In this document: piece by piece, positions 1,790 through 34,437 of the stretch
Position numbering within the stretch: the first letter of the stretch is position 1
Layout of the letters: every line of letters starts with the position of its first letter
Assembly (NCBI GenBank): GCA_047619465.1
Contig: JBLHJW010000003.1
Coordinates: 1 to 36,496 of the forward strand
DNA length: 36,496 nucleotides
Direction of reading: 5' to 3'
Source: Minisyncoccia bacterium
GTDB lineage: Bacteria > Patescibacteriota > Minisyncoccia > Phycocordibacterales > CSBR16-119
Position numbers and translations under genes: made by a program
Notes under the pieces: generated by a model
Told to the model about the DNA's origin: nothing
What the model saw: the letters and a program-made list of their open reading frames with translations, nothing else
The model's database searches: none

Positions 1790-2131
1790 TTATGGCCTAT
1801 TGATGTTGGACATTGGAATGCAGTCAATTTTTATAATCTTCATTTCCCAGTTTTTTATATCCGAGTATGATCCTGATACTTTGAATTTTCTTTGATTTTT
1901 GTAATCAAATATATTATCTCTTACTTTAATACCTTTTAATTCGTTTTTTTCAACCTCAATTTTGAAAGTAACTCGTGCAGTTTCTTTTACCACTGAGGTC
2001 CTACCTGTAACCCTTTTTGTAATGGATGGTTCTGCTGGGCCAGTTAGTTGAAAAGTGACATTACAAGAGCAGTCATCCTGAGACAAAGCAAGGGATGGAA
2101 AAAATAATAGTGAAATAAGTAGCTTTTTCAT
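1790..2131 (-). CDS. Secreted hypothetical protein (class-B unit)
   Basis: Signal peptide MKKLLISLLFFPSLALS|Q; TTGACA at 2185-2180; A-rich leader; hairpin at 1741-1766 shared with the convergent DoxX gene. Confidence 0.8.
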   Translation of the reverse strand: MKKLLISLLFFPSLALSQDDCSCNVTFQLTGPAEPSITKRVTGRTSVVKETARVTFKIEVEKNELKGIKVRDNIFDYKNQRKFKVSGSYSDIKNWEMKIIKIDCIPMSNINRP

Positions 2132-2230
2132 AAGTTTTGTTCAGTTGTTTTTTAATACTTAAACATAATGATTCTTTTTTGTCAAGCAAAGAAGCTTGCC
2201 ACCAAACAACCCTTAATATAGAATTATCAC

Positions 2231-2935
2231 ATGACAGGAACACTCTACATCGTTGGTACTCCAATAGGGAACCTGGGAGATATCACATATCGAGCAGTTG
2301 AGACTTTGAAAAAAGTCTCTATTGTTGCGTGTGAGGATACTAGAGTTACTAGAAAGTTACTTTCTCATTTTGAAATATCTGTTCCCACTATTTCGTATAA
2401 TGCTCATGCGACAGACAAAAATACAAACAAAATAATAGACACGCTTATTGCTGGCGATGACATCGCGCTAGTTTCAGATGCCGGAATGCCGACAATATCT
2501 GACCCCGGAGTAATGCTTGTTCATCTGATCTACAACAGGAATGACGGTCTAGAAGAAGATGAGCAAATAAAAATAGAGTCAATTCCTGGGCCAACAGCTT
2601 TATCATCGGCGATTTCGCTATCTGGTATATCCGCTGCAAAGTTCACTTTTCTTGGGTTTATCCCTCATAAAAAAGGGAGACAGACAATCCTTAAGAAAGT
2701 AGCTGAAAATGAAGACACACATGTATTCTATGAGTCACCTCACAGGCTTAAAAAGGCTCTAGAATCACTAGCTGAGTACAATCCGAACAGATATGTGGTT
2801 GTAGCTAAAGAGCTCACAAAGATCCATGAACAGGTTGTACGAGGAACTGCAGAGGAGGTATTGACGTACTTTACAGAGAACGAAGACAGGGTAAGAGGAG
2901 AGTTTGTGATACTAACTGGAGAGAAGCTAAAATAG
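2231..2935 (+). CDS. rsmI: 16S rRNA (cytidine1402-2'-O)-methyltransferase
   Basis: LYIVGTPIGNLGDIT, ACEDTR, LVSDAGMPTISDPG, YESPHR, ELTKIHE; TTGCCA-17-TAGAAT 6 nt before the ATG. Confidence 0.96.
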   Translation: MTGTLYIVGTPIGNLGDITYRAVETLKKVSIVACEDTRVTRKLLSHFEISVPTISYNAHATDKNTNKIIDTLIAGDDIALVSDAGMPTISDPGVMLVHLIYNRNDGLEEDEQIKIESIPGPTALSSAISLSGISAAKFTFLGFIPHKKGRQTILKKVAENEDTHVFYESPHRLKKALESLAEYNPNRYVVVAKELTKIHEQVVRGTAEEVLTYFTENEDRVRGEFVILTGEKLK

Positions 2936-2951
2936 ATGATATAATTTTCTA

Positions 2952-3266
2952 ATGACTAAACAACGACTTCTATTTCTTATCGGTATTTGGGTGGCCGTGC
3001 TACCATTCCTTGGTTTTCCTCAGAGTATTAGAAATGTATTTTTCTTGGTTACAGGCCTTGGGATAATTCTACTTTCTTATTTTATGTATATCCAAATAAA
3101 AGCCATCAATGAAATGGACGAAAAAGGAGGAGGGATATTTGCACAAGAAGAAAAGGAAGCGGACGATATTGTGGAGGACAAATCTACTAAAGAAGAAAAA
3201 AAATTAGAGTCTGAAAAAGAAATTACTAGTGACGTAGAGGTGTCGCTTGATGGAAAAGAAATATAA
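2952..3266 (+). CDS. Small membrane protein with two TM helices and an acidic tail
   Basis: Two hydrophobic segments, then a Glu/Asp/Lys-rich tail; TGA-TATAAT 6 nt before the ATG. Confidence 0.75.
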   Translation: MTKQRLLFLIGIWVAVLPFLGFPQSIRNVFFLVTGLGIILLSYFMYIQIKAINEMDEKGGGIFAQEEKEADDIVEDKSTKEEKKLESEKEITSDVEVSLDGKEI

Positions 3267-4374
3267 AAAAATATTTGTAGTATTTATTTCGGGAGCATCT
3301 TTGGCCATGCTTATTTATTTTGCTGGAGGACTTTTTTCTAAAGAAGAGTACGTTGGATTTGAATCTGTCGGTGCAACTGTTCTCACTTCTTTAAAAAATA
3401 TGGATGTAATCATACCTTCATATGTTGATCAGCCGGAAAATGTCAAAGCTATATATATGACATCTTGGGTTGCTGGAACTGATAAACTAAGGAGAGATCT
3501 TATTGACTTTGTTTCCAAGAGTAACATTAACAGTGTGGTTTTAGACATCAAAGATACTTCGGGCAAGGTTGCCTTTGATATTGATAATAAATACCTTAGA
3601 AAAATTGATCCATTTGATGATCGAATTAAGGAGATTTCCGTGGTTATTGATGAGCTTCATCACAAAAATATATATGTAATAGGTAGGATTTCAGTTTTTC
3701 AAGATGATTTTGCTACTGAGGCCTGGCCAAATAAAGTGATAAGAGAAATTGATGGTAATATTTGGTTGGATAAGAATGGAAACTCGTGGATGGATCCAGC
3801 TTCGGATGAAATCTGGGAATACAATACTATTTTAGCAAAAGAGGCTTTCGAGTTGGGTTTTGATGAGATAAATTTCGACTACGTTCGTTTTCCAGAAGAG
3901 TGGGGAATAGAGGAGGTCGTCTATCCAGTATCAAAAGAAAGGTTTCAGCAAAAAGATACCAAGGATACTATATTGGAAGACTTTCTTGTTTATACTTCGC
4001 AGGAAATAGATTCTAATAAAAATATATCTGTGAGTTTTGCAAAGGAAGACATGGATGGTTTAATGACTATTGCAGGAAAATATATAGATACTCTTTCTCC
4101 TGTAGTTTATCCTTCATCATTTGAAAAAGGCTATCTCGGCTACGATAATCCAAGCCTATATCCATATGAGGTGATTTATGAGACAATGCAAGCAGTTACT
4201 GAAAAAGTCGACAAGGAAAAATTGAGACCTTGGTTGCAAGACTTTAATTTAGGCTCAAGATATACCGAAGTGGAGATTATGGATCAGCAAAGTGCTTTGA
4301 ACGATGTTGGTGTTAGTAGTTGGATGATGTGGGATCCATCAAACAGATATACAAAAAATGCTTATTTTAAATAA
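3247..4374 (+). CDS. Putative glycoside hydrolase (DUF4015-like TIM barrel), membrane anchored
   Basis: VKAIYMT, NSVVLDIKD, IYVIGRISVFQD, GFDEINFDYVRFP, LRPWLQDF and WMMWDPSNRY motifs. Confidence 0.8.
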   Translation: MMEKKYKKIFVVFISGASLAMLIYFAGGLFSKEEYVGFESVGATVLTSLKNMDVIIPSYVDQPENVKAIYMTSWVAGTDKLRRDLIDFVSKSNINSVVLDIKDTSGKVAFDIDNKYLRKIDPFDDRIKEISVVIDELHHKNIYVIGRISVFQDDFATEAWPNKVIREIDGNIWLDKNGNSWMDPASDEIWEYNTILAKEAFELGFDEINFDYVRFPEEWGIEEVVYPVSKERFQQKDTKDTILEDFLVYTSQEIDSNKNISVSFAKEDMDGLMTIAGKYIDTLSPVVYPSSFEKGYLGYDNPSLYPYEVIYETMQAVTEKVDKEKLRPWLQDFNLGSRYTEVEIMDQQSALNDVGVSSWMMWDPSNRYTKNAYFK

Positions 4375-5590
4375 AAAAAATGTTCTAGGTGTTTCGTCGC
4401 TACTACTGATTGCTGGTATTTTTGTTGGCGGTTTCTTTCTAGGGAAGGGCGCTATAGACTCATCTAGCTCAGTAGCCCTTGCAAACAAAGCCTTACCTGA
4501 TTATGTTTTGGAGGAAGATTTTGATGAATCTGATTTCAAAGTTTTTTGGGATGTTTGGAAGCTAATTGATGACAAATATCCAAATGGTACTGAAGTTGAA
4601 TTTCAAGATAGGGTTTATTCAGCAACAAAAGGTCTTGTAGATTCTCTAGATGACAACTATAGCTCCTTTTTTGATCCAGTAGAATCAGAATACTTTAATC
4701 AAAATTTAGCAGGAGAATTTGGTGGAGTTGGTATGGAAGTTGGAATAAGGGAGGGTAACATAACTGTTATTTCACCATTGAAAGATAGTCCAGCCCAAAA
4801 AGCTGGGATACTAGCAGGCGACTACATTATTGCTGTGGATGGCGATTCCATAGCAGAGATGACAATTGATGAAGCTGTAAAAATAATTCGAGGAGAGGTT
4901 GGTACAGAGATAACTCTTACAATTTTTCGTGAAGGTGATGAAGGTACAAAAGACATAAAGATAATTAGAGACATAATAGAAGTGCCAACAATAGAAACAG
5001 AGATTAAAGATGGTGTGTTTATAATTTCTTTGTTTAGTTTTTCTGAAACTTCACCAAAGCTTTTCCGTGAGTCTCTACAGGATTTTATTGACTCTAAAGC
5101 TGAATATCTAATCCTTGATCTGCGAGGTAATCCAGGAGGGTTCTTGAATGCTGCACAAGATATGGCAAGCTGGTTTCTTCCAGAAGGCAAAGTTGTTGTC
5201 ATAGAAAAATACGCAGATGGGGAAGACGTGATTCATCGATCAAAAGGATATGATGTTTTTAATGATAATTTAAAGCTTGTCGTTCTCGTAAACGGTGGCT
5301 CAGCATCAGCCTCAGAAATTCTAGCTGGAGCCCTACAGGACCATGATATTGCGACTGTTGTGGGGTCTCAGACCTTTGGTAAGGGGTCAGTTCAAGAGCT
5401 GATACCAGTTAGAGGTGGTGGAAGTCTTAAAATTACAGTTGCTAAGTGGCTTACACCAGATGGATTATCAATTTCAGACTCTGGCCTAACACCAGATGTT
5501 GAAGTTGAAGTTACAAAAGAAGACATAGAGGCAGATTTAGATCCTCAGTTAGCCAAAGCAATAGAGACTGTAAAAGATTTAGAAAAATAA
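4358..5590 (+). CDS. ctpA: S41 C-terminal processing peptidase with PDZ domain
   Basis: FGGVGMEV (PDZ), LILDLRGNPGG, SASASEI, TFGKGSVQ. Confidence 0.93.
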   Translation: MLILNKKNVLGVSSLLLIAGIFVGGFFLGKGAIDSSSSVALANKALPDYVLEEDFDESDFKVFWDVWKLIDDKYPNGTEVEFQDRVYSATKGLVDSLDDNYSSFFDPVESEYFNQNLAGEFGGVGMEVGIREGNITVISPLKDSPAQKAGILAGDYIIAVDGDSIAEMTIDEAVKIIRGEVGTEITLTIFREGDEGTKDIKIIRDIIEVPTIETEIKDGVFIISLFSFSETSPKLFRESLQDFIDSKAEYLILDLRGNPGGFLNAAQDMASWFLPEGKVVVIEKYADGEDVIHRSKGYDVFNDNLKLVVLVNGGSASASEILAGALQDHDIATVVGSQTFGKGSVQELIPVRGGGSLKITVAKWLTPDGLSISDSGLTPDVEVEVTKEDIEADLDPQLAKAIETVKDLEK

Positions 5591-5602
5591 TAATACACTC
5601 AT

Positions 5603-6049
5603 ATGAAAATTATCCTACTGCAAGATGTAAAGAAGATTGGAAAGAAAAATGATGTAAAAGATGTTCCAGATGGGTACGCAAGAAACTTTCTTATAGCTCG
5701 CGGATTTGCGAAGACAGCCACTGGAGAAGCCGTTTCAAAGCTCAACAAAGACCTGGGAAACAAAGCTTCGGAAAAAGCAATTCAGAATGATCTCTTATTT
5801 AAGAACGTCGAAGAACTTAAAGGAAAAAATTTGGAAATTGAAGCTAATGCAAATGATAAAGGAGGCTTGTTTAAATCTGTAAAAGCAAAAGATGTAGCTG
5901 TAGAGATTCAAAAACAATTTGGCTTTCAAATAGATGACAAGTTTATATCCATTCCTGAAGATCAGATAAAAGAAGTAGGGAAGAGTGAGATCAAGATTTC
6001 ATTTGAAGGTGTCAAAGAAACAATTTTAGTTTCTGTTGTAAAAAAATAA
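5603..6049 (+). CDS. rplI: 50S ribosomal protein L9
   Basis: [27 protein letters not shown]. Confidence 0.96.
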
Positions 6050-6075
6050 CCACTCATATGAGTGGTTATTTTTTT
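6041..6075. terminator. Bidirectional terminator between rplI and rpmA
   Basis: AAAAAATAACCACTCAT/ATGAGTGGTTATTTTTT perfect inverted repeat. Confidence 0.88.
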
Positions 6076-6088
6076 ATATTTAAAGAGA

Positions 6089-6367
6089 TTATGCAGTTAT
6101 AACGTCTACTAGCTTTCTTGAAGTTTTAGCTCCTGTAAAAGTAGTTTTTCTCTTGTTTGAGTACTTTACAGTACCGTCTGTAAGAGCAAATAGAGTATGG
6201 TCTTTTCCAACTGCAACATTTGCCCCAGGAACAAACTTTGTTCCTCTTTGACGCACTATAATAGAACCATGTTTAGCTTTCTGACCATCAGCAAGCTTTA
6301 TACCAAGGTATTGTGCATTTGAATCTCTAAGGTTTTTTGCCGAACCACCGGCTTTCCTATGTGCCAT
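6089..6367 (-). CDS. rpmA: 50S ribosomal protein L27
   Basis: [34 protein letters not shown]; TTGCAT-17-TATACT promoter with a U-rich leader. Confidence 0.97.
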
Positions 6368-6497
6368 ACGATTAAATAATATAAATAATAACAGAAAAAA
6401 GTATACCTATATTCTCCAAAAAATGCAATACCTTTAATTTGTAATATGTTGACACAGTCCAAGCTCTATAGTAATTTGGAATAAAACAATAACAATC

Positions 6498-6842
6498 ATG
6501 AAAAAGAAAGTTTTTTGCATATTAAAGAAAAATCCTACTGTTTACACCTTGATGGAGCCAGATCTTCAGAAGAGAGGCTATGTGAAAAGTAGTACCTCCC
6601 CAACATGGGTGACAGCAAAAGAATGGATTCCTTTTGGTTTTAAAGAAGAGAAATCTGTAACTGGAAGTCATGTTATCGTTTTCAAGAATATGGTTAAAGA
6701 GATATCAGATATTCTAGATAAGCTAAATGGCCAAAGTCACCAGACTTTTGCAATACTCCTAAGGGGTGAGGAGGTCCAAAGCAAGGATGAATTTCCTGAG
6801 TATCAGTTCTTTGAGTACCAGGTATTGGTTTACAAGCCTTAA
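6498..6842 (+). CDS. Hypothetical protein (class-B unit)
   Basis: TTGACA(6449)-17-TAATTT, leader GGAATAAAACAATAACAATC, terminator at 6851-6879. Confidence 0.8.
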   Translation: MKKKVFCILKKNPTVYTLMEPDLQKRGYVKSSTSPTWVTAKEWIPFGFKEEKSVTGSHVIVFKNMVKEISDILDKLNGQSHQTFAILLRGEEVQSKDEFPEYQFFEYQVLVYKP

Positions 6843-6987
6843 TATTATTCAAAAAAGCCGCATGTTTTGTGGCTTTTTTATATTTTCAAATGAGGAGCAA
6901 TCGGGAGCTCGATCATGTATTGCCCGAATGAAGGAAGTATATGAGCCGAGAGACTCACCGAGTGCCCATATTTGGTATACTTATCAT

Positions 6988-7311
6988 ATGAAAAATATTC
7001 AAGCTAAGAAGAAAAATCTTTTATTTATTGTAGCTTTGGTGATACTTACATCGCTTATTTCTTTCTTCTTGGGGCGGCTATCTGTTTTGGAAATAGACAG
7101 CGGGGGAGTTGAGATTTACTATCCGGATATAGTAGCTGAACTTGCAGGAGATGATTCGCAGCAGAAAGTATACGCCTCCAAGAACGGATCAAAATACTAT
7201 TTTGATTGGTGCAGTAGTCAGGTTAAGGATTCGAATAAAGTTTATTTTAATTCAACAGAACTAGCTCAGGGAGCTGGGTACACTTTGGCTTCTGGTTGCA
7301 GGGAATACTAA
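6988..7311 (+). CDS. Membrane-anchored protein with a C-terminal Ada metal-binding-like domain
   Basis: Start moved to MKNIQ at 6988 (TGG-TATACT 6 nt upstream); one TM helix; YASKNGSKYY..C...N.VYF....AQ.AGY....C pattern. Confidence 0.75.
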   Translation: MKNIQAKKKNLLFIVALVILTSLISFFLGRLSVLEIDSGGVEIYYPDIVAELAGDDSQQKVYASKNGSKYYFDWCSSQVKDSNKVYFNSTELAQGAGYTLASGCREY

Positions 7312-7380
7312 ATTCTTTTTATAAAAAGAGGGGGGTGTGAAGATGTTTTTATTAGATACGATATATCAAATAACATAGTA

Positions 7381-7408
7381 GTGTCTCACAATATATCTTG
7401 CGCGACAT
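7381..7408. other. dif-like Xer recombination site (11-6-11)
   Basis: GTGTCTCACAA-TATATC-TTGCGCGACAT imperfect palindrome in a 700-bp gap between convergent genes. Confidence 0.55.
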
Positions 7409-8011
7409 ACTTTGATTTATAATGGAAGAAGTACTCTTGTAGTGCGACATTACACAGTAAACAAAGGGTTTATCTACGCTTATATTGACTTAGCGTGCAC
7501 CCACAACAAAGACTGTAAACATTGACTATTTAGAGGCTCAAAACGGCGCTCTAAGGGATTTATTTAATACCGAGGACTCTTGTATCATCTGCATATCCAG
7601 TTTAACCCTTGCTTTATAAGACTCATATAGAAAAACTAATTTTGGCTAAGGTTTATAGTTATTTATTATAAATTTATGTAATTCTATTTGATAATTTTTT
7701 TATGAAAAAGCACCTGGTTGAAAACTATCTTTTTTGTTGATTCAGTTAGCGTCATCAGTCTAATGATATAAAGTAGTCTCAAGTTAGGGATAATAAAACA
7801 GAACCCCTCTTCCCTTGCTCTTGTGATATAAGTCTTTATAGTCCCACAACGTGGCGTACTTCTTTTTCTGTAACTCACTTCGTTCTAACAGAAAAAAGTC
7901 GCACAATATATTACGCCTAGAGTAAAATAAAAAACGCGAACGTTTTTAATTTCGCGTCTCTCCTTTTGTAAATGTTTTTTGTATATTCAAAGACAATTAA
8001 GTGAAAATAAT

Positions 8012-8323
8012 CTAACTTGATGGATAGGGGCTCAGCTGGTTTCCCATTTGCTGCAGTGAGTTACCTTCACCGGCTTTTATACTCTGTAGATTTGCAATAA
8101 AAGAGTTCCATAGCAGGTCTATAAAAATATTATTCCAGAAATAAGTAAGAGGGTTTTGTAAATACTCTTCCCAAACATACGTAACACCACCCCAGACATA
8201 TCCTAGGTTCGATTGAGTTTGAGGAGCCTTAATAAATGATTCAATATCAAAAGAGAAAAAAGACAAAACAAGTATTCCAAGAATTACAAGTAAAATTGTT
8301 CTGATTCGCATAAAGCCTTTCAT
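8012..8323 (-). CDS. Hypothetical membrane protein
   Basis: Start moved to MKGF at 8323 (TGC-TACAAT 6 nt upstream); N-terminal TM helix; Trp-rich helix. Confidence 0.75.
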   Translation of the reverse strand: MKGFMRIRTILLVILGILVLSFFSFDIESFIKAPQTQSNLGYVWGGVTYVWEEYLQNPLTYFWNNIFIDLLWNSFIANLQSIKAGEGNSLQQMGNQLSPYPSS

Positions 8324-8327
8324 ACAA

Positions 8328-9662
8328 TTATTGTAGCATGTTAATTGCGTAATCAATTCGTTCTATGGAAGTTTTTTTTCCTATAACCTCAGCAATGCTA
8401 AATGGGTCTGGAGATCTATCTCTTCCTGAAAGGGAGAATCGCAATGGCCACAGGACCTGGCCACGGCCATTTTCTGTAGCATAATCCCAAACAGAATTTT
8501 TTATATCTTCTGAATTAAAAGACTCCATACTTGAAAAGGATTCTTTGATATGTTTTAAATGTTTTAGAGTTGTTTCCTTGTCTGACTTTTTCATGATTAG
8601 TTTATCAAACTCATATTTGGGTTGACCATAAAGATAAACAAAGTTTCCTTCTTTTTCCTGTGTTCGAAGTTCTCCAAAGTTGTCAATTCTCTCTGTGAGC
8701 ATTTTGACAGCTGTAGTATTGTCTCTTACCTTTTCAAACAAATCAGAAGACACAAATTCTGAAACCTTTATCAATAAAGCATCATCAGATAGATTCTTTA
8801 TGTATTGTTTGTTCGTCCAGTCTAGTTTTTCGCTATTAAACGCGGCTCCGCCTTTTTGAACCCTTTCGAGTGAAAACTCTTTAACAAATTCTAATAAAGG
8901 GATTATTTCTCTGTCGTCTCCTGGGTTCCATCCAATAAAAGATAGAAAGTTCAGCAGTGCATCTTTTAAATATCCAGCATCTCTATACTCCAGAACAGAT
9001 TTAACTCCTGGGTCTCTTTTTGAAAGCTTACCTCCTGTTGGACTCATGATCAATGGAATGTGCGCGTAAATTGGTCTTTCATATCCAAGGGCTTCAAGTA
9101 TCACCAACTGCCGGGCTGTACTATTTAGATGTTCTTGGCCTCTTATTACATGAGTGATACCCATATCTCCATCATCAACAACCACAACGAAGTGGTAAAC
9201 AGGAGAGCTGATATCTCTAGCAATCACAAAGTCTCCAAGCTCCTCAATATCAAAGGTCACCTCCCCTACTATCTCATCTTGGAAACTAACTTTTGTATTT
9301 GGATTTTTAAACCTAATAACTTTTCCAGATTTTTCCTTATTTTCTTCTGCTTCATAGGCAAAACCACTGTCAATGAGCTGTTGGAGTTTATTCTTATAAA
9401 CCTCTCCCCTGTCGGACTGTCTATAGAATTCGTCATGTTTAAGGCCGAGCCATGAAAATGATTCGAGAATACCATCCTCGTGTTCCTTTTTAGATCTTTC
9501 CTTATCTGTATCTTCTATTCTAAGTACAAACTTACCTCCATTCTGTTTAGCAAAAGCATAATTAAACAAAGCTGTTCGAACACCTCCAATATGAAGAACT
9601 CCTGTTGGAGATGGGGCAAATCTGGTCACTACCTTTTTATCTTTCTTAAGAAAATTAAACAT
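8328..9662 (-). CDS. gltX: Glutamate--tRNA ligase
   Basis: VTRFAPSPTG.LHIGG, LRIEDTD, THVIRG and KLSKR; likely start MFNF at 9662. Confidence 0.96.
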   Translation of the reverse strand: MFNFLKKDKKVVTRFAPSPTGVLHIGGVRTALFNYAFAKQNGGKFVLRIEDTDKERSKKEHEDGILESFSWLGLKHDEFYRQSDRGEVYKNKLQQLIDSGFAYEAEENKEKSGKVIRFKNPNTKVSFQDEIVGEVTFDIEELGDFVIARDISSPVYHFVVVVDDGDMGITHVIRGQEHLNSTARQLVILEALGYERPIYAHIPLIMSPTGGKLSKRDPGVKSVLEYRDAGYLKDALLNFLSFIGWNPGDDREIIPLLEFVKEFSLERVQKGGAAFNSEKLDWTNKQYIKNLSDDALLIKVSEFVSSDLFEKVRDNTTAVKMLTERIDNFGELRTQEKEGNFVYLYGQPKYEFDKLIMKKSDKETTLKHLKHIKESFSSMESFNSEDIKNSVWDYATENGRGQVLWPLRFSLSGRDRSPDPFSIAEVIGKKTSIERIDYAINMLQ

Positions 9663-9663
9663 T

Positions 9664-11906: not shown

Positions 11907-11909
11907 GTC

Positions 11910-24996: not shown

Positions 24997-25046
24997 TTGA
25001 TTATTGTATCAGATAAAAACAAAAAAGACTGCTGTGCAGCAGTCTT

Positions 25047-25181
25047 TTAATCTAATAATTTTTTTAATTTAGATTTAATCATTTTGAAAATATTAATAAG
25101 TCCGACAGTAACTGCCAAAACTATCAACACCGGAACAACCATAAGGTTAAATCCTTCTCCATCTTCACTTGGACTTTCCAT
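25047..25181 (-). CDS. 44-aa single-TM peptide not in the ORF track
   Basis: MESPSEDGEGFNLMVVPVLIVLAVTVGLINIFKMIKSKLKKLLD; A-rich leader; the stop abuts the terminator at 25023-25048; TTGCAT-18-TATACT upstream. Confidence 0.55.
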   Translation of the reverse strand: MESPSEDGEGFNLMVVPVLIVLAVTVGLINIFKMIKSKLKKLLD

Positions 25182-25350
25182 TTTCTATATTTTTAGAAGT
25201 TTCTGAAAATAACTCAAGAAATGGTGCTTTATTGATAAAGTATATAAGGCACCACAATGTATATGCAAATTTTTTCATTACTCTCATTTGATCTATTTTA
25301 ACTAACAATACCATCAAAAAAACAGGGTTACAACCCTGTTTAAATATCAA

Positions 25351-25542
25351 TTAATTTCGTCTCGGGAAAATTCTAAAGTTTCGAAGAAGACTCCAGTTAG
25401 GACTCTTTCGAGCCTGACTTTCTTTCTGAAGCTCGGCAATTCTCTCAAAGCGTCTCATGTCTGATGGCTTCATGTCTTTTAAACTTCTTATTTTGAAATT
25501 CTCGCCATGTACTAAAATGTCACTCAGATTTGTCTTTGGCAT
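25351..25542 (-). CDS. Small basic hypothetical protein (class-B unit)
   Basis: TTGTAA-16-TATACT overlapping the trpS stop, A-rich leader, terminator at 25316-25341. Confidence 0.68.
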   Translation of the reverse strand: MPKTNLSDILVHGENFKIRSLKDMKPSDMRRFERIAELQKESQARKSPNWSLLRNFRIFPRRN

Positions 25543-25580
25543 GACTTTGTTTTTATTCAGTATATATCAAAAAAGCAGTG

Positions 25581-26549: not shown

Positions 26550-26589
26550 AGAAGCATTGTATCAGAAAGGAGCAAACAAAAAAGACCCA

Positions 26590-26994
26590 TTACTTGAGTC
26601 TTTGTTTAAATGGTCTAATGTGAGCCTTACTATACAGACTCATCATATATGATTTATTTGCTAGAAAAAAAGCCGCTTTGATGGGTTCTTCCTCTGAGTT
26701 TGCTGTGTAGGCTGTGAATTTCCCCGGACCTTTTTCCATAAAATATTTCAGCCACTGAGTATAAAAATCCATTTCTACTATCAAATAATGATCTTCATTA
26801 GAAAGCAACCACCTATCGATTTTTGGTAGAGAATCCCTGTGAATTTTTAAAGGATCTTTACCCATGTAGTCAATTTCGAATCGAGAGAATAATAATTTAT
26901 TAAAAAAAGATTCCTCGCTTATTCTGATATCAAACATAAGATTATGAGAACCCTCAGAGGGTTTATGCCTCGTAGAAGGAATTAAATGTACCAT
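26590..26994 (-). CDS. Hypothetical protein (class-B unit)
   Basis: TTGACA(27046)-16-TAACCT, A-rich leader, terminator at 26574-26608. Confidence 0.78.
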   Translation of the reverse strand: MVHLIPSTRHKPSEGSHNLMFDIRISEESFFNKLLFSRFEIDYMGKDPLKIHRDSLPKIDRWLLSNEDHYLIVEMDFYTQWLKYFMEKGPGKFTAYTANSEEEPIKAAFFLANKSYMMSLYSKAHIRPFKQRLK

Positions 26995-27044
26995 TCTATG
27001 TCTTTTTAATTTTAATTTAGGTTATCATAATTTATTTAGATGTC

Positions 27045-27317
27045 AAAAAAAATAACCCCAAGGAACTCGGGGTTATTTCGCAGCGTGCGGTGCTTTTGAA
27101 TGCATGGCAGCTGCTGGCAGAGTGATGAAGAACCAACAAGACCACTCTGAGTGTGGCGGAGGTCCCAAAGTTTGGGAAGAAAAAGAAATCCACTTTTCCC
27201 TGAGGGTTGAATTTCCTTTACGCAAGAGATGATAGCTCTTGCAGAGATTCAATCTTCCTAAACTTTGGTAAACAGGCTTTAGGCCTGAGTCCTCCCATGT
27301 GTCATTAAAAAGAACGG
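27045..27317 (-). ncRNA. Candidate structured non-coding RNA, family not recognised
   Basis: TTGCCA(27352)-17-GATACT promoter, at least six helices, terminator at 27050-27078, no ATG-initiated ORF longer than 26 aa. Confidence 0.6.
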
Positions 27318-27437
27318 ATTTACAGTATCACATACTATTGCATCTTTGGCAACAGTTATGTCACTATCCACAGATTCTCCACTATTTTCTAAGCAAAATT
27401 GAAATCCTTGTTTCCCTCTTTATGTTAAAATTACCAA

Positions 27438-28829
27438 ATGAAAAAAACCGGTCAGAGCGGGAGAATACCACCCCATAGCATAGAGAGTGAGCAGGCTGTT
27501 TTAGGAGCGATTATGCTTCGCGCTGATGCTATTCACGATGTGATAGACATGCTTATTCCAGCGACTTTCTATAGTGAAAAACACCGAATGATATACAAAG
27601 CAATGTTGGACCTTTCAACTAAGTCAGAGCCTATTGATCTAGTCTCTGTCTCTGCCAAGTTGGAAGAGAAAAAAGAGCTTGAGGCTATTGGAGGAAGATC
27701 ATACTTAATAGATCTAACAAACACGGTTCCCGCTGCAACAAACGTTAAACACTACGGAAACATCGTAGATAAAAAATTTCTTTTAAGATCTCTAATCAAT
27801 GCAGCAGATACTATTGTGGAACTTGGTTTCAATGATGACGCAACTGAAGTTGGCGATATTCTTGATATGGCAGAGAAGCAAATATTCTCCATTACGGGAA
27901 ACCCAAAAGGTGCAAAATTCATATCTATTAAGGAGTCACTGAAAGAAACATGGGAACAGCTGGAAAAACTTCAAGATTCAGAAGATGGTATTCGAGGTGT
28001 CCCTACTGGATACCCGTCTCTGGATAACTTACTCTCTGGGCTTCAGCCATCTGACCTAATTATTCTTGCGGCTCGTCCTTCCATGGGAAAAACTACTTTA
28101 GCACTAGATATGGCACGACACGCCGCTACAAAGCACAATGTTCCTGTTGCAATATTCTCACTCGAGATGAGCGCAAACCAGCTTACTCAACGTATGCTAG
28201 CAGCTGAGTCCCAGGTGAACGCTTGGAACTTGCGAACCGGTAAAATTAAAGATGAGAATGATTTTGAGAAAATTAGAGATGCTCTAGGAACCCTTTCAAA
28301 AGCTCCTATCTATATTGACGATATGGCAGGAAACTCTATCGTAAAGATGAAAGCTGTTTGTCGTAGACTGAAGTCAGAACATGGACTAGGTCTAATTGTT
28401 GTTGATTACCTGCAACTTATGTCTGCCGGAAAGAACTTCGACTCTATGGTAAACCAAGTTACAGAGATATCACGATCTCTAAAGGCTCTTGCTCGTGAAG
28501 TAGACGCGCCTGTTCTAGCCCTATCTCAGCTCTCCCGTGCTGTGGAAGCACGTGGAGGAAAACCTCGACTGTCTGACCTTCGTGACTCCGGATCTATTGA
28601 GCAGGATGCTGATGTGGTAATGTTTATTCACAGAGAAGACAGAATGGGGTCACGATCAGACGATGAGAATACCGGAATGGCAGAAATCCTAATTGAGAAG
28701 CACCGAAATGGACCTGTTGGAAAAGTGGACCTATTCTTTGATGAGAAAACCAGCACTTTCATGTCTATTGAGAAAAGTGATATGGGTGGATTTGCTAACA
28801 GCGGAGGAGGATCACTAGACGATTTTTAA
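27438..28829 (+). CDS. dnaB: Replicative DNA helicase
   Basis: PPHSIESEQAVLG, AARPSMGKT, VVDYLQLM, LSQLSR, DLRDSGSIEQDAD, KHRNG. Confidence 0.98.
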   Translation: MKKTGQSGRIPPHSIESEQAVLGAIMLRADAIHDVIDMLIPATFYSEKHRMIYKAMLDLSTKSEPIDLVSVSAKLEEKKELEAIGGRSYLIDLTNTVPAATNVKHYGNIVDKKFLLRSLINAADTIVELGFNDDATEVGDILDMAEKQIFSITGNPKGAKFISIKESLKETWEQLEKLQDSEDGIRGVPTGYPSLDNLLSGLQPSDLIILAARPSMGKTTLALDMARHAATKHNVPVAIFSLEMSANQLTQRMLAAESQVNAWNLRTGKIKDENDFEKIRDALGTLSKAPIYIDDMAGNSIVKMKAVCRRLKSEHGLGLIVVDYLQLMSAGKNFDSMVNQVTEISRSLKALAREVDAPVLALSQLSRAVEARGGKPRLSDLRDSGSIEQDADVVMFIHREDRMGSRSDDENTGMAEILIEKHRNGPVGKVDLFFDEKTSTFMSIEKSDMGGFANSGGGSLDDF

Positions 28830-28832
28830 AAT

Positions 28833-29459
28833 ATGAGCAGCATAGAAGAACTAGCACAACTATTTAGAAAATTCCCTGGAATTGGCGAACGACAAGCCAA
28901 GCGTTTTGTCTACTTTCTACTCAAGTCACGTCCAGAGTACGTAGAAAAGCTTTTACAAGAAATAAGGAATACTAGAAACAATACAAAGGTTTGCCAGGAA
29001 AGCTACCAATTCTTTGTTGCAGACGAACAGAGCTCCACAATTTCTTTTATTGCCAGAGATCCATCACGAGATAAAACAAAGCTCTTGATAGTAGAAAAAG
29101 ATACCGACCTACAGAATATTGAGAAAATGAGGGTGTACGATGGAAACTATTTTGTTCTAGGTGGTTCACTTCCCTACCTTGCTGAAAATCCAGAGAGACT
29201 CATTCGAATAAATGAATTAAAAGCCATTATTGAAATGAAAGTAAAGAGAGACTCTTTGACTGAAATAATCTTTGCTCTTTCTGCCACACCTCAAGGAGAA
29301 CATACTGAAGAATATATAAAAAATAATGTTAGCGAAATAGTATCGAAAAATAGTTTAAAGCTATCACACTTAGGACGAGGACTTTCTACTGGACTTGAAA
29401 TTGAGTACTCCGATAAAGACACGTTTGAGAATGCTTTTAATCATCGCTCTGAAGTATAA
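28833..29459 (+). CDS. recR: Recombination mediator RecR
   Basis: HhH FPGIGERQAKR, Toprim LLIVE..D, EIIFALSATPQGE, GLEIEYSD. Confidence 0.92.
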   Translation: MSSIEELAQLFRKFPGIGERQAKRFVYFLLKSRPEYVEKLLQEIRNTRNNTKVCQESYQFFVADEQSSTISFIARDPSRDKTKLLIVEKDTDLQNIEKMRVYDGNYFVLGGSLPYLAENPERLIRINELKAIIEMKVKRDSLTEIIFALSATPQGEHTEEYIKNNVSEIVSKNSLKLSHLGRGLSTGLEIEYSDKDTFENAFNHRSEV

Positions 29460-29471
29460 ATTGAGTATCAA

Positions 29472-29500
29472 AAAAGGCGGAACAAATTGTTCCGCCTTTT
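29472..29500. terminator. Bidirectional terminator
   Basis: AAAAGGCGGAACAA-A-TTGTTCCGCCTTTT. Confidence 0.88.
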
Positions 29501-29513
29501 GTATTAAATTAAA

Positions 29514-32500
29514 TTAATGAGATAGAATCTTCACAGACCCTTCATCATTGCTTCCTGTCCAAACAACGATCTGTCGTCCGAAGGTTACATCACCTCGAAC
29601 AATGTCATTTAGTTTTACTAGGTTACGAGAAAGTTCTCGTCCGCTAATATCAACAACTTTTCCAGACGCATTGGGACTCCTAGATAGAATTTCCTTTATT
29701 CCATTAGGTTCCGTTTCCAACAAGTAAGTTTCTGTTGTCGCAGGGTAAAGTCCGCCACCAACTTTAACAAACATCTTGAAAAAGTATAAGGTAGCTGAAT
29801 TTAGCTCCTCCATAGCGAAAAGATATTCGCCATCGAGTATTCCATCCTGAACGGGAGTAAAATTCTCGTTAGGAGTTAGCTGTCCATATCCAACATAAAG
29901 TTCGACATCTTCAACTCCGTTAATATCCACGTACCAACTAACGGATGCCGCGTTATGATAGATCAAAGTATATGGACCATCATAAACAACAACAGAGTCA
30001 ACTGGTTCTGGAGGTGTAATTGGACCCTCATCGGTCGTAAAATACAACCAAGGACCAGTATACAAATCTCCGGAATTGTCATACAAGATTCCTCTTGCTG
30101 ACACAAACTCACCAGCAGACAAGCCACTCAAACCTTGAGTGTAAACTCCTTGAGAGCTCACAGACTGGAATGTTGAATTCAAAGTATTATTCATGAACTC
30201 ATATTCGACCCGGAAACTTACTCCAGGTAAATTACCATTTGTCAGTACAAAGGTTAGCATGGCAGTATTGATACCAACAGAAACAGTGTCACTGTTGGTA
30301 ATCATTGGAACAGGAGGCTCAACCACTACAACTGGACCTAAGTCCGTTATAAACTGCTGAATTGGTCCTAGAACCATGACATTGCCCAGACCGTCTAAAA
30401 GTCTTGCCTGATACAAACACGTAGAACCAGCTGGTAAACCATTCAAACTTGTCGTGTACAAACCATCTAGAGGTATTGACTGTTGAGCCGAATACATAAC
30501 CTGGCCCTGAACTGTGTATTTGTAGTCATGAAAAAGACCTATCCAATCACCCATTACGATATTTGAAACTAGTGTTGCTGACGTTGAATCAACAACAAGA
30601 GTATCACTGTTCAGTATTACAGGATTCACAACAACAATCACAGGACCTTCGTCCGTAGTGAACTGTTCCCATGATGACTGATAAAACATTCCATACTGGT
30701 TAGATAATTCTACTTGCCACGACACCAACGTTCCTACTGGAAGTGGGTTTAGGTTTGCGAGATAGTTTCCCCAAGTTGGTGACATCACACTTGGTGGTGT
30801 CGAGAATGTCATACTATTGTACGAGTAGTTTACACTGTACATAGTATTCAGTGAGTCATTTGCTGCTCCTTCGAAGCCAACAGTTGCCGCTGTTGAATCA
30901 ACACTAAGCGTGTCAAGATTCATAACAACTGGACCCTCTAAAGGATCTGGTGGCAGAATTACAGGACCTTCGTCCGTAGTAAATTGCTCCCATGAAGACG
31001 ACTGAAAAACTCCATACTGGTTAGATAATTCTACTTGCCAGAAAACCAACCTTCCCGAAAGAAGTGGATTCAAATTAACAAGATAGCTACCCCAAGTTTG
31101 AGACATCGCACTTGGAGCTGTCGAGAATGCCATGTTGTCGTAATTATAATTTATACGATACATGGTATTTAGAGAATCATTGGCTTCACCCTGGAAACCA
31201 ACAACTGCCCCCGTTGAATCAACACTAAGCGTGTCAAGATTTACAACAACCGGACCAAACAACTGCACTGGTGGCACAATCGTGTCAGGCAATGCAGGAA
31301 GCGTAAAGAAATTGTTAAATTGCGCTTCTGAATATCCACCACTACTATTAGTGGCATCCATTGTAAACCAGACAATGACCGTCTGACCAATTTGTCTGTA
31401 CGGATCACCATCAAAGCTAAGTGAGGAATTTGTTGCTCCTGTAATATTCTCAGTTGCAACTGGCACGTTGATCACCTGTGGGTTCAATCCAATTTTCACT
31501 CTCGTGTCTGCCGTAGCAGCAGGATTGCTTATATCTGGATTACACCAGTATGAGATCTGTACCCACCCAGTGATTGGATCATAAAATCCATTTCCCATGT
31601 TTATTTGAGGAAGTACTCCAGGTCCGGCAATCGCGAACGATCCACCATCTTGGTACTGACCAACTGTGTCAGTAATCTCAATAGACCAATCATACGTAGT
31701 GTTGAAAACTCCCGAAAGAGCAAAACAAGACGCCCCAGACCACTCGAAAGTGGTATCTAGTAAAACTGGACCATTTAATGCAGCCTGAACAATTAATTCA
31801 ACTGTAGCTCCGTTCGAATCCTGACTAATCACATCATCTAAACAAAACGTATAACTGTTTGTGTTTATCTGCTGTGTGTATGTAGCCGTTGGACCATCTG
31901 CATTTGCAGTGGAGAACACTCTATTCACAGTTTCTGTTTGCGAATCCACATTCTGAGTCAGTGTTACCTGAACAGCATAACTTGTATTCACAACAGTACC
32001 GCTAATAGGTATAGCTAAACCAGTACTTGGGCCCTGTGGAACTGTTCCACCTGGGAAAGTTCCTAATCCTGGAACATATACTGAAACATTTCCACCTCCG
32101 CCAAAGACGGTGGCATCAACGTAAACAACAGAATTATACCAATCCAAAACAACAATAGTGTCTATGGAAAGAATAGGATTGTCATAGCCGGTCGTAGCTA
32201 AATTCGCTGTGTAGACCTGCGGATCACCCAAACTGTTATTTACAGTAAGGACCGCAGTGACAGGTGTCTCTGACGTCCAAATAGGAATCCATTGACATCC
32301 ATCTGTCGAATCAGCAAAAGCATATGTAGATGCAAGAATTGTATCTACTCCAACAACATACTCAAGTGTTACTGAACCCGTAAGGTCATTCGACTGAGCA
32401 TCAAAACAAACGAGAACTGAGTCTACGTTTGATCCTCCGTCTGAGACGGAACCTGTTGGAAGCTCGGGAAGCGTAGTTGTAAAAGTGTCTGGCACGAATG

Positions 32501-33185
32501 CTGACGATTCATTTATCAACTGATCCTCTGCATAGGCTTGAACCCAGTACGAGTTTCCTGGTAGAAGTCCAAATATACTCAAGTCGGCTTCAGCATTTGG
32601 TCCTTGCACATAGGCAGAACCAGCAGACCACTGAGCTGACCCTGGGCCAACTGCAATGTCGTAGTACCAATAACGCACATAAGCACCCGCATGGGCATCA
32701 AGTGACGTTCTGATATTTAGCGAAGTCTGCAATGCTTCAAGCAGAACAATTCCGGAGATAATAGGCTGATCGTGTTCCCACATGGTGGTCCCACTAATAG
32801 CGTAAGTACTGACTTCGGAATAAACCGAATCAGTCCCCCCAGTTGTATCTGCAACTTGTCCAACGATAATATATCCGTTGGTTTCATTCTCGTATAGACC
32901 TTCCACATAGTGAGGCATAGGAATGGTGTTCCCTTCGTAATACGTAGTATCCGATCGGTGCATTCCATCCTCTGACTCTGTGTAGAATCTTCCCACCAAG
33001 TTTGACGTTGCTGGATTGATGTTTACTCCACCTTTGCCGTAAACGACAAGACTTGAATCTGTAAGTGTATAGTTCTCATACGTTGCCGTAGAGTCGATAA
33101 ACACATTCGGAGTTGGTGTTTGAGCGCTAGCCCAATTAGTAATTGCCACTATGGCGATTACCAAACTTAGCATTTTTCTTTTCAT
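29514..33185 (-). CDS. Large secreted beta-rich protein, 1223 aa, with FN3-like repeats and a T9SS-CTD-like tail (class-B unit)
   Basis: Start MKRKML at 33185; signal peptide ends ASA|Q; ~100-aa modules ending F(T/I)TD.GP; tail GIKEI..KVVDISGREL..G..IV..VKI; TTGACT(33257)-17-TAGGTT. Confidence 0.85.
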   Translation of the reverse strand: MKRKMLSLVIAIVAITNWASAQTPTPNVFIDSTATYENYTLTDSSLVVYGKGGVNINPATSNLVGRFYTESEDGMHRSDTTYYEGNTIPMPHYVEGLYENETNGYIIVGQVADTTGGTDSVYSEVSTYAISGTTMWEHDQPIISGIVLLEALQTSLNIRTSLDAHAGAYVRYWYYDIAVGPGSAQWSAGSAYVQGPNAEADLSIFGLLPGNSYWVQAYAEDQLINESSAFVPDTFTTTLPELPTGSVSDGGSNVDSVLVCFDAQSNDLTGSVTLEYVVGVDTILASTYAFADSTDGCQWIPIWTSETPVTAVLTVNNSLGDPQVYTANLATTGYDNPILSIDTIVVLDWYNSVVYVDATVFGGGGNVSVYVPGLGTFPGGTVPQGPSTGLAIPISGTVVNTSYAVQVTLTQNVDSQTETVNRVFSTANADGPTATYTQQINTNSYTFCLDDVISQDSNGATVELIVQAALNGPVLLDTTFEWSGASCFALSGVFNTTYDWSIEITDTVGQYQDGGSFAIAGPGVLPQINMGNGFYDPITGWVQISYWCNPDISNPAATADTRVKIGLNPQVINVPVATENITGATNSSLSFDGDPYRQIGQTVIVWFTMDATNSSGGYSEAQFNNFFTLPALPDTIVPPVQLFGPVVVNLDTLSVDSTGAVVGFQGEANDSLNTMYRINYNYDNMAFSTAPSAMSQTWGSYLVNLNPLLSGRLVFWQVELSNQYGVFQSSSWEQFTTDEGPVILPPDPLEGPVVMNLDTLSVDSTAATVGFEGAANDSLNTMYSVNYSYNSMTFSTPPSVMSPTWGNYLANLNPLPVGTLVSWQVELSNQYGMFYQSSWEQFTTDEGPVIVVVNPVILNSDTLVVDSTSATLVSNIVMGDWIGLFHDYKYTVQGQVMYSAQQSIPLDGLYTTSLNGLPAGSTCLYQARLLDGLGNVMVLGPIQQFITDLGPVVVVEPPVPMITNSDTVSVGINTAMLTFVLTNGNLPGVSFRVEYEFMNNTLNSTFQSVSSQGVYTQGLSGLSAGEFVSARGILYDNSGDLYTGPWLYFTTDEGPITPPEPVDSVVVYDGPYTLIYHNAASVSWYVDINGVEDVELYVGYGQLTPNENFTPVQDGILDGEYLFAMEELNSATLYFFKMFVKVGGGLYPATTETYLLETEPNGIKEILSRSPNASGKVVDISGRELSRNLVKLNDIVRGDVTFGRQIVVWTGSNDEGSVKILSH
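30637..31257 (-). repeat. Tandem intragenic duplication, period 321 nt
   Basis: ACAGGACCTTCGTCCGTAGT occurs at 30640 and 30961; NLDTLSVDST..WQVELSNQYG..WEQFTTDEGPVI occurs twice. Confidence 0.92.
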
Positions 33186-33240
33186 TCTTATTGATTTTTT
33201 TATTAATGTTCTACTTATATTTGAGTTAAACCTACCATAG

Positions 33241-33259
33241 TATTGACAAAAAGTCAATA
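33241..33259. promoter_or_regulatory. Palindrome containing two opposed TTGAC boxes
   Basis: TATTGAC-AAAAA-GTCAATA between the divergent large gene and rsmE. Confidence 0.5.
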
Positions 33260-33294
33260 TGTATCCATGGTTATCATCTTGGTAGACTAGAACC

Positions 33295-33981
33295 ATGAAA
33301 ATTCATCGATTCTTCAGCCCTTCCATAGATAAGACGGATGAGATAACTATCTCTGACAGGGATTTAGTACACCAAATGCACAATGTACTCAAGCTCCAGA
33401 ATGGAGAGTTTGTAGAGCTATTTGACGGCTCTGGGGACGCTTTACTAGGTGAGATAGGTGATGTTTCTAAGAAATCCCTAATTCTAAATAAGAAAGAGGT
33501 TAAGTCTGTAGAAGATACTCGAAAAGATATCTTTGCCTATATTCCCCTCCTGAAGCGATCCAATACAGAACTGATGATTCAAAAGCTAACTGAACTTGGT
33601 ATCAAAAATATAATCCCAATCAAAACTGACAGAACTATCAAGTCTGATGTAAATTTAGATAGACTGAAGAAAATATCACTTGAAGCTACCGAGCAATCTG
33701 GCCAGTACTTCCTGTCAAAAATAAGTGAGCCTATTAAACTAAAAGACGCCATAGAAATAGCGTCTGGTACAGATATATTTGTTTTGGATATGGGAAGAGA
33801 ATCCTTCCGAGACAACAAGCGTGATTACCCACTATCTTTCTTTATTGGCCCTGAAGGAGGTTGGACAGACGAAGAGCGAGAACTATTCAAAGGGTCATCT
33901 GCAAAAATTGTATCCCTCACAGAAACTACTTTGCGTGGAGAAACTGCCGCTATTAATGCCGCATACGAAAGCCTTGTGTAA
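33295..33981 (+). CDS. rsmE: 16S rRNA (uracil1498-N3)-methyltransferase
   Basis: HNVLKL, QKLTELG, EATEQS, FIGPEGGW, LRGETAA; TGG-TAGACT 6 nt before the ATG. Confidence 0.95.
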   Translation: MKIHRFFSPSIDKTDEITISDRDLVHQMHNVLKLQNGEFVELFDGSGDALLGEIGDVSKKSLILNKKEVKSVEDTRKDIFAYIPLLKRSNTELMIQKLTELGIKNIIPIKTDRTIKSDVNLDRLKKISLEATEQSGQYFLSKISEPIKLKDAIEIASGTDIFVLDMGRESFRDNKRDYPLSFFIGPEGGWTDEERELFKGSSAKIVSLTETTLRGETAAINAAYESLV

Positions 33982-34038
33982 AAAAATACGACCTCTCCAA
34001 TCGTAGAGGTCGCTTATTATACCTTTTCTTAAAGTTGT

Positions 34039-34437
34039 CTATTTTTCTTGAAGCGGGGGTAGCATTACCCAATTAATGGCAGGAAATTTACTGTAACCAC
34101 CATTAGAGTTTTCGCCATCCATGGAAAACCATAATCGAACAGTTTTATCAACTTCCCGAAATGGGTTGCCATCAAACTCAAAAGAATAGTTTCCAACTTC
34201 TGAAATTTCTTTTACTGCGACAATGGTATTTATACTATCCGGGCTTGTACCGACTTTTAGTGTGGCTACACCTGTAGCAAACTGATCAGTTGGGTCTGGT
34301 TTGAACCAAAAACCAATACTGACATGGTTACTTTCGGAATCTATATACGCGTTACCCATATTCATCATTTGGCCATTAACCAAATTATTAGCTATTATTA
34401 ATATAGCAATAGCTAGACTTAAAGTTTTGATTCGCAT
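34039..34437 (-). CDS. Secreted single-domain paralog of part of the 1223-aa protein (class-B unit)
   Basis: Signal peptide ends VNG|Q; TTGACA(34489)-16-TAAACT; hairpin at 33989-34012. Confidence 0.85.
   Translation of the reverse strand: MRIKTLSLAIAILIIANNLVNGQMMNMGNAYIDSESNHVSIGFWFKPDPTDQFATGVATLKVGTSPDSINTIVAVKEISEVGNYSFEFDGNPFREVDKTVRLWFSMDGENSNGGYSKFPAINWVMLPPLQEK

Follow-up and report, generated by a model that had tools for sequence, protein, structure and literature searches.

The 36,496-nt stretch of DNA analyzed here (the window) encodes four predicted secreted proteins, P0001 to P0004, whose putative signal peptides are each followed by Gln at position +1 of the predicted mature protein, an export signal known from Bacteroidota as the Q-rule. 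The window is the entire contig C3 (JBLHJW010000003.1) of G000, a 661-kb Patescibacteria-like genome in 32 contigs, and the four proteins appear to belong to a class of approximately 24 exported proteins with short signal peptides ending in a small-x-small site before Gln, mostly preceded by promoters of the TTGACA type. Four members of the class, encoded outside the window, end in the type A sorting domain of type IX secretion system (T9SS) cargo. This domain recurs throughout the family of G000, in genomes in which the machinery that would read either signal was not detected. We favor, with moderate confidence, the reading that the class was acquired anciently and consists of fast-evolving host contact proteins in which selection maintains Gln and the sorting domain.

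The four window proteins share one N-terminal layout: a positively charged start, a hydrophobic core, a small-x-small site, and then Gln. The translations (slashes mark predicted cleavage) are MKKLLISLLFFPSLALS/QDD for P0001, starting at 2131 on the minus strand; MKKILTSFICLLVGGIISA/QTS for P0002, with its ATG at 21877 on the plus strand; MKRKMLSLVIAIVAITNWASA/QTP for P0003, with its ATG at 33185 on the minus strand; and MRIKTLSLAIAILIIANNLVNG/QMM for P0004, starting at 34437 on the minus strand. They agree with a preliminary description of this DNA, which had listed signal peptides ending ALS/Q, ISA/Q, ASA/Q, and VNG/Q, respectively. Cleavage sites were assigned with the −3/−1 rule, by eye and with crude scripts, and a second site predictor gave alternative sites two residues upstream for P0001 (SLA/L) and P0003. 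P0001 (113 amino acids [aa]; 1790 to 2131, minus strand) has a 17-aa signal peptide encoded at 2081 to 2131 and a Gln codon at 2078 to 2080, which leaves a mature part of 96 aa with three Cys residues. In P0002 (317 aa; 21877 to 22830, plus strand), a protein with a predicted fold resembling that of the NAGPA/DUF2233 phosphodiester glycosidases, the signal peptide is encoded at 21877 to 21933 and Gln at 21934 to 21936. P0003 (29514 to 33185, minus strand) is a 1,223-aa repeat protein, fn3-like by look-alike search only, with its signal peptide at 33123 to 33185 and Gln codon at 33120 to 33122, and P0004 (132 aa; 34039 to 34437, minus strand) is a one-domain paralogue of P0003 with the corresponding features at 34372 to 34437 and 34369 to 34371. 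Homologues whose sequences start with the signal peptide back the internal start codons at 21877 and 33185, as do −35 and −10 boxes located within the longer open reading frames (ORFs). Given that 3.4% of residues after [AVST]x[AGS] inside proteins are Gln, the chance of finding Gln at all four sites is approximately 1e−6. The preliminary description had further stated that all four secreted proteins with this promoter type carry the signal. Four do, but the proportion may be four of six if the ORFs at 20012 to 20413 and 21188 to 21781 are counted, which have the same promoter type, hydrophobic N-termini, and possible sites followed by T or K. Its observation that flanking envelope proteins lack +1 Gln holds for the S11 carboxypeptidase (FLA/G), the S41 protease, DUF4015, and FtsW.

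Gln at +1 is common across the genome. Among 670 ORFs called in G000, 134 combine a charged start with a hydrophobic core at the N-terminus, and 43 clear cleavable signal peptides were counted by eye from this list and the predicted sites. Gln follows the site in 24 of the 43, while it accounts for 2.8% of residues overall. Two predictors that ignore the +1 residue were applied to the whole genome and found Gln at 13 of 75 sites (P ∼ 1e−6) and 12 of 76 sites (P ∼ 1e−5), where it was the first or second commonest +1 residue; both predictors are noisy, with membrane anchors miscalled as signal peptides and sites shifted by two residues. The 24 Gln-type signal peptides are shorter than the 19 others (mean of 23 versus 30 aa). 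A TTGACN box lies 45 to 95 nt upstream of 12 of the 24 Gln-type genes and of none of the 19 non-Gln genes (Fisher P = 3e−4, or 1e−3 with paralogues collapsed), while a −10 box abuts the ATG of 4 Gln-type and 13 non-Gln genes. The distinct gene class ("class B") that the preliminary description had set apart by its leadered promoters is thus real, and +1 Gln tracks both these promoters and short signal peptides. Besides the proteins discussed here, the Gln type includes proteins with collagen repeats and a YadA head repeat; the collagen triple-helix proteins are encoded at C1:39619-41076 and C7:2-1783 (Pfam E values of 2e−32 and 3e−18). A separate set of five secreted paralogues of approximately 540 aa has near-identical long signal peptides of the form MKINTLISKQTT...LQA/A (C1:1-1251, C2:20231-21874, C2:23771-25411, C15:3598-5307, and C18:43-1797). 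Several of these genes lie at or near contig ends and may be breaking the assembly.

The second Bacteroidota-like signal was found at the C-termini of four +1-Gln ORFs outside the window (C4:18667-19350, C2:22009-23700, C4:1472-2839, and C11:12122-12817), which score over the curated cutoffs of PF18962 and TIGR04183. When whole proteins were scored with NCBIfam, three of the four exceeded the cutoff and one scored 22.4 against a cutoff of 23. No protein exceeded the sorting domain cutoff in any of 14 control genomes. One of the domains aligns to the C-terminal domain of PDB entry 7pzj_A (E value of 2e−4), with the motifs YPNPT and LPAG-Y, and shows a weak alignment to 8glj_D, which carries the chain name of a Por sorting domain. 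The passenger parts of these proteins include ASST-type beta-propellers, and the protein that joins ASST to a sorting domain scored 0.96 in a language model atlas against clusters of the same architecture (ASST plus Por_Secre_tail), mostly from Bacteroidota and Ignavibacteriota, which we treat as a lead only. The domain is present in all 19 other genomes of the family (four genera, 0.5 to 0.8 Mb), at one to four copies per genome and with several of these genomes in just 6 to 10 contigs. Elsewhere in the order, 2 of 21 families have it. An even sample of 400 genomes across the phylum yielded 19 with the domain, among them a closed, single-contig genome of 0.96 Mb from another family with four copies. 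Relatives contributed 20 full-length ORFs with a sorting domain, 18 of them with a readable N-terminus; 16 of the 18 have a short signal peptide ending in A or G before Gln, and two have Ser at +1. In BLASTP comparisons of the four G000 proteins with these 20, only the C-terminal 50 to 85 aa aligned (8 of 8 hits). The sorting domain and Gln are thus conserved while the remainder of the protein has diverged, a pattern that we read as suggesting selection on both.

The two signals also tend to occur together. We counted ORFs in which Gln follows a (−3, −1) site, relative to all ORFs with a signal peptide-like or anchor-like N-terminus, in samples of 60 to 200 kb per genome. Three genomes of the family gave 9/37, 7/51, and 7/49, and four other families of the order in which the sorting domain was not found gave 1/43, 5/41, 0/34, and 3/39; pooled, this is 23/137 versus 9/157 (P = 0.003), and by eye the Gln hits in the domain-less genomes are mostly anchors or cytoplasmic proteins. 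One further family of the order with a sorting domain gave 1/19. Two unrelated lineages with the domain gave 5/53 and 10/65, with 6 of their 19 pieces picked for holding sorting domain genes, and three lineages without it gave 1/20, 2/19, and 1/16.

Machinery that would read either signal was looked for across the 20 genomes of the family; the preliminary description had proposed a check of this genome for glutaminyl cyclase and T9SS genes. Neither Glu_cyclase_2 (PF05096) nor Peptidase_M28 (PF04389), the two types of glutaminyl cyclase, was found in any of the 20, while the same models detected 4 and 14 controls, respectively. Omp85/BamA was likewise found in none of the 20 and was detected in seven of seven diderm controls, and SprA was not found either. 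G000 encodes a single S26 signal peptidase.

The promoters of the window genes fit the class. P0001 has a −35 box TTGACA at 2180 to 2185 (minus strand), 54 nt before its ATG, with a −10-like TAAGTAT and then an A-rich leader downstream. The predicted promoter of P0002 (21819 to 21847, plus strand) consists of TTGACA, a 17-nt spacer, and TAATTT, with 29 nt between the −10 box and the ATG. That of P0003 (TTGACT, 17-nt spacer, TAGGTT; 33229 to 33257, minus strand) has 43 nt between the two and lies inside a longer ORF that starts at 33296, and in that of P0004 (TTGACA, 16-nt spacer, TAAACT; 34462 to 34489, minus strand) the −10 box is separated from the P0004 ATG by 24 nt. The class as predicted from sequence has TTGACA, a 17-nt spacer, TAnnnT, and A-rich leaders of 20 to 45 nt, and a strict TTGACN-N16-19-TAnnnT pattern precedes 64 of 653 ORFs, mostly those of small hypothetical proteins. 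Housekeeping genes appear to be leaderless, with a −10-like box 6 to 12 nt upstream of the ATG but lacking a −35 box; examples in the window start at 1279, 2231, 13943 (minus strand), 16370 (minus strand), 24996 (minus strand), 26549 (minus strand), and 35711, and a loose form of this pattern fits 259 of 653 ORFs in the genome. Shine-Dalgarno (SD)-like motifs precede just 36 of 666 ORFs genome-wide, and the 3′ tail of the 16S rRNA (C10:21622-23148; L153:1501-3027) reads GGACUAAUUCAAUU, where the Rfam model reads GGAUCACCUCCUUU; the CCUCC anti-SD was not found in this tail. The lack of SD sites in the leaders is thus shared by the whole organism and is no Bacteroidota mark of the class, and the "Bacteroidota-style translation" signal that the preliminary description had attributed to these genes falls away.

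G000 is Patescibacteria-like by its tiny size, its gene content, and the labels and DnaB identities of its relatives. Its Pfam matches do not include ribosomal protein uL30 (Ribosomal_L30), which was found in 13 of 14 control genomes and whose loss is a marker of the candidate phyla radiation (CPR). The 40 relatives sampled within its order all have genomes of 0.5 to 0.9 Mb. Its DnaB is 61 to 65% identical to those of metagenome-assembled genomes (MAGs) labeled as Patescibacteria group, Paceibacterota, and, in one case, Saccharibacteria, and 47 to 48% identical to those labeled Gracilibacteria and Peregrinibacteria. The assembly is 96.4% complete and 1.0% contaminated, with an even GC content of 36.5 to 39.3% across its contigs. 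On C3, all four genes are flanked by housekeeping genes. By Pfam, these encode Ham1, an RsmI-like methylase, DUF4015, S41 protease, L9, GluRS, MurG, FtsW, and MraY, as well as S11 carboxypeptidase, ScpA/B, AspRS, an ABC transporter, a class I W/Y tRNA synthetase, DnaB, RecR, RsmE, TruB, and BacA. For P0001, the junctions with these neighbors are bridged by contigs from other samples, which were compared with positions 1 to 20000 (X3, 859 to 5788; X4, 1766 to 2400; X5, 1997 to 2545). For P0002 to P0004, they are supported by synteny in the same-genus genome G001, where homologues of P0002 and P0003 are similarly spaced on one contig.

The window proteins themselves are divergent. P0002 has 30 identified relatives, of which 16 were aligned. 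Twelve of these have Sec-type N-termini, and 10 of the 12 keep [small]x[AGS]/Q at approximately 40% identity. The other four (P0015, P0029, P0032, and P0033, the last labeled Gracilibacteria) have twin-arginine-like leaders (RREF, RRTF, or RRSF). Among five tested MAGs that hold P0002 relatives, two have sorting domains over the cutoff, while no match was obtained in the tested Peregrinibacteria- and Gracilibacteria-labeled MAGs, G043 and G045, to which the twin-arginine-like leaders probably belong. P0002 has no Pfam or NCBIfam match at an E value of ≤0.01. Its structural model (pLDDT of 80) matches NAGPA/DUF2233 proteins in Foldseek (PDB 3ohg and 6pky; E values of 2e−5 to 2e−4, probability of 1.00). 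A same-genus P0002 homologue (53% identity; G001:C2:28494-29366) has two TGA codons and one TAA codon within the match and may be a pseudogene. A homologue of P0003 was found in 1 of the 40 relatives, the same-genus genome, at 41 to 46% identity and syntenic with the P0002 homologue. An exhaustive HMMER search with the C-terminus of P0003 returned four close relatives and fn3-like repeat proteins, and look-alike scores of 0.90 to 0.91 to clusters with fn3 plus Por_Secre_tail serve as a lead only. P0004 matches residues 527 to 634 of P0003 (40% identity, E value of 3e−22).

A conserved 60-aa tail of P0003 was considered as a candidate sorting domain on the basis of a D-x-S-G-R-x-L hairpin seen by eye and was rejected. 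It has no Pfam or NCBIfam match, two sorting domain hidden Markov models (HMMs) that we built gave no support (E value of 7 for the lineage-specific one), and hhalign assigned a probability of 6% to the alignment of the P0003-family tail with the sorting domain. The tail was modeled with confidence as one helix and approximately four strands, with no PDB match at an E value of ≤0.001. The tail of the protein encoded at C1:81516-83198 was likewise rejected, with no support from the lineage-specific HMM.

How these signals came to be in such a cell can be explained in several ways. Contigs of Bacteroidota could have been binned or misassembled into a CPR genome, an obvious suspicion with a MAG. 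Nothing was found in favor of this, and we consider the chance of it close to nil: the housekeeping neighbors, the synteny in G001, the bridging contigs, the 1.0% contamination estimate, the presence of the domain in 19 of 19 family genomes, and the closed genome with four domains all speak against it. Contamination and misassembly are effectively excluded, in line with the preliminary description, which had called a chimeric contig unlikely. That description had also raised the possibility that symbiont mRNAs are translated by host ribosomes and that the leaders are Bacteroidota-style translation signals. The leaders are indeed A-rich and free of SD sites, but SD-like motifs are scarce throughout the genome and the organism's own 16S rRNA lacks the anti-SD, nonsecreted hypothetical genes share this type of promoter and leader, and no route of mRNA transfer is indicated; we found nothing in support of this idea and regard it as highly improbable. 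A third explanation is that genes from Bacteroidota-type neighbors brought signal peptides that suit any Sec system, with Gln and the sorting domain as functionless leftovers. Horizontal transfer into CPR genomes is known, and no machinery that reads either signal was found in the family. Against this stand the sorting domain as the sole part still alignable between family members, its presence in 19 of 19 family genomes of 0.5 to 0.8 Mb, and the retention of +1 Gln in 16 of 18 sorting domain proteins and 10 of 12 Sec-type P0002 relatives at 40% identity or less. In streamlined genomes with fast-evolving genes, neutral relics should have decayed, so that this explanation fits the observed conservation poorly, and we think it improbable.

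The main rival to ancient acquisition is native, convergent use, which we hold to be possible, if unlikely. The lineage itself would favor +1 Gln, for example, because N-terminal Gln cyclizes spontaneously and protects exoproteins, and would use the sorting fold for its own surface anchoring through unrecognized machinery, with no need for Bacteroidota. Several observations point this way and weigh against the reading that we favor. GC content is nearly equal in Gln-type and non-Gln secreted genes (0.395 versus 0.400) and GC at third codon positions (GC3) is 0.303 in both, so that any transfer was old or never happened. Gln at +1 also occurs on the CPR-typical families T4SS_pilin (PF18895), DUF5667, and Peptidase_M23, and the class is therefore not foreign-looking in its entirety; a pilin-like protein with +1 Gln was also found in a relative without a sorting domain. 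Proteins of the T4SS_pilin type with +1 Gln are encoded at C27:6672-7028 and C7:17340-19070 in G000, at L063:323-706 in G020, and at L095:7867-8229 in G004. Their Gln may be a feature of the pilin family rather than of the Q-rule class, for which VirB2 processing offers a parallel. All 16 loci of P0002 relatives in the genome collection are in Patescibacteria-labeled MAGs, as found by a search with a single peptide pattern. Other points limit the favored reading but do not speak for native use. P0001 matches no family and has no relative among the 40 related genomes, word-based searches with P0003 and with the ASST plus sorting domain protein returned only the queries themselves, and Pfam, NCBIfam, HMMs, hhalign, and fold search support a sorting domain in none of the window proteins. 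Signal peptides were called heuristically or by eye, and the related genomes compared above are nonindependent observations. The absences of SprA_N and the type B sorting domain from the 20 family genomes and of PorU-type Peptidase_C25 from G000 (one genome searched) are weaker than the others; all three models were silent in the controls, since the 14 control genomes all lack a T9SS, including that of Bacteroides thetaiotaomicron, which is not known to have one. In favor of native use, the conservation of the sorting domain and Gln amid divergence means that both work in the lineage. Native use nevertheless accounts less well for domains that exceed the curated cutoffs of T9SS cargo models and carry their canonical motifs, for a patchy distribution in the phylum (19 of 400 genomes and 2 of 21 neighboring families) that fits acquisition better than ancestry, and for the presence of long non-Gln signal peptides beside the Gln type in a genome with just one signal peptidase. 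A short signal peptide, +1 Gln, and a type A sorting domain together are a signature of Bacteroidota or Ignavibacteria.

Ancient acquisition would then work as follows. P0001 to P0004 would leave the Patescibacteria cell through its own Sec pathway, with cleavage by the one signal peptidase I that it encodes. The class to which they belong would descend from genes taken long ago from Bacteroidota-like bacteria of the Fibrobacteres-Chlorobi-Bacteroidetes (FCB) group and would have been kept as fast-evolving host contact proteins of a symbiont. In this set, P0003 may act as a giant repeat adhesin-like protein with P0004 as its small paralogue, P0002 as a NAGPA-like phosphodiester glycosidase, and P0001 as a small Cys protein. 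Gln and the sorting domain would persist by mattering at the site of action, for which the envelope of a Bacteroidota host, at its surface or within it, is the simplest candidate, and such a host would explain their continued use. The Bacteroidota-like export signals of the preliminary description are thus confirmed by the +1 Gln class and by family-wide T9SS sorting domains, but its suggestion of capture from a Bacteroidota host is not demonstrated, given the native composition and the labels of the P0002 relatives. A bolder proposal, which we consider rather doubtful, is that a subset of Patescibacteria (approximately 5% of sampled genomes, and this whole family) parasitizes Bacteroidota by means of the host's envelope machinery. 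Both signals would be kept because host enzymes process the proteins where the two cells touch: glutaminyl cyclase of the host would cap them, and its surface-exposed T9SS attachment complex (PorU/PorV/PorZ) would cleave the sorting domain and link the proteins covalently to the surface of the host.

Several features of the contig stand apart from these proteins. Positions 20000 to 29999 of the window are present in eight runs labeled ice metagenome, from eight studies, at 0.08 to 0.99 of sampled words, and positions 1 to 20000 were compared with four of those runs and are covered by all four. Approximately 1.1 kb at 6843 to 8011 has no confidently coding ORF, tRNA, or Rfam match, and contigs from two other samples have insertions of 39 nt at approximately 7383 and of 8 nt after 7671.

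Both T9SS sorting domains and the Q-rule count as hallmarks of Bacteroidota and closely related groups. Their conservation here, apparently under selection, in sub-megabase Patescibacteria without an outer membrane, T9SS, or glutaminyl cyclase raises for T9SS biology the question of what a sorting domain does in a cell without a T9SS. Hosts are unknown for almost all Patescibacteria, and a signature that points to a host phylum makes the question testable. If host machinery is in fact exploited, the sorting domain together with the Q-rule would allow the host phylum of uncultured CPR bacteria to be predicted from their genomes. If the signals are instead old baggage, they would still show cleanly that foreign export signals can be retained over long periods. 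Full-text searches with paired terms, within the literature accessible to them, found no link of T9SS sorting domains or the Q-rule with Patescibacteria or CPR, and the accessible part of a preprint that mentions T9SS and CPR treats the two topics separately. Such proteins may presumably already be labeled as such by the automatic annotation of public databases.

The closest known counterparts of the Gln-type proteins are the Q-rule substrates of Bacteroidetes, where Q-values exceed 48% in over 99% of 334 species, with a mean of 71%, and high values are also reported for some Ignavibacteria and Chlorobi relatives (Bochtler et al. 2018, PMC5837995); in the portion of that paper available to us, no passage about CPR was found. 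G000 resembles them in the combination of a short Sec signal peptide, a small-x-small site, and +1 Gln in 24 of the 43 signal peptides judged clear by eye. It differs in being Patescibacteria-like, in having a second population of long non-Gln signal peptides, and in that no plant- or animal-type glutaminyl cyclase was found in 20 of 20 family genomes. For P0002, the likeness to the NAGPA "uncovering enzyme" and DUF2233 proteins consists of the predicted fold match and a conserved LDGG-type motif common to both, which we take to be typical of that family, while the TM-score is just 0.40 to 0.48 and identity is 9 to 11%. With T9SS type A cargo, the four sorting domain proteins of G000 and those of 19 of 19 family members share an N-terminal signal peptide and a C-terminal sorting domain, and the ASST plus sorting domain combination is common among clusters from Bacteroidota (again a lead only). 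In contrast to such cargo, they occur without a detected Omp85, SprA, C25 peptidase, or type B sorting domain in the genomes searched, and the window proteins lack a supported sorting domain. Cultivated CPR epibionts have surface and secreted proteins for host interaction. The class described here resembles these in comprising large, fast-evolving, lineage-specific secreted proteins, encoded in a tiny genome that also has type IV pilins and T4SS-pilin-like genes.

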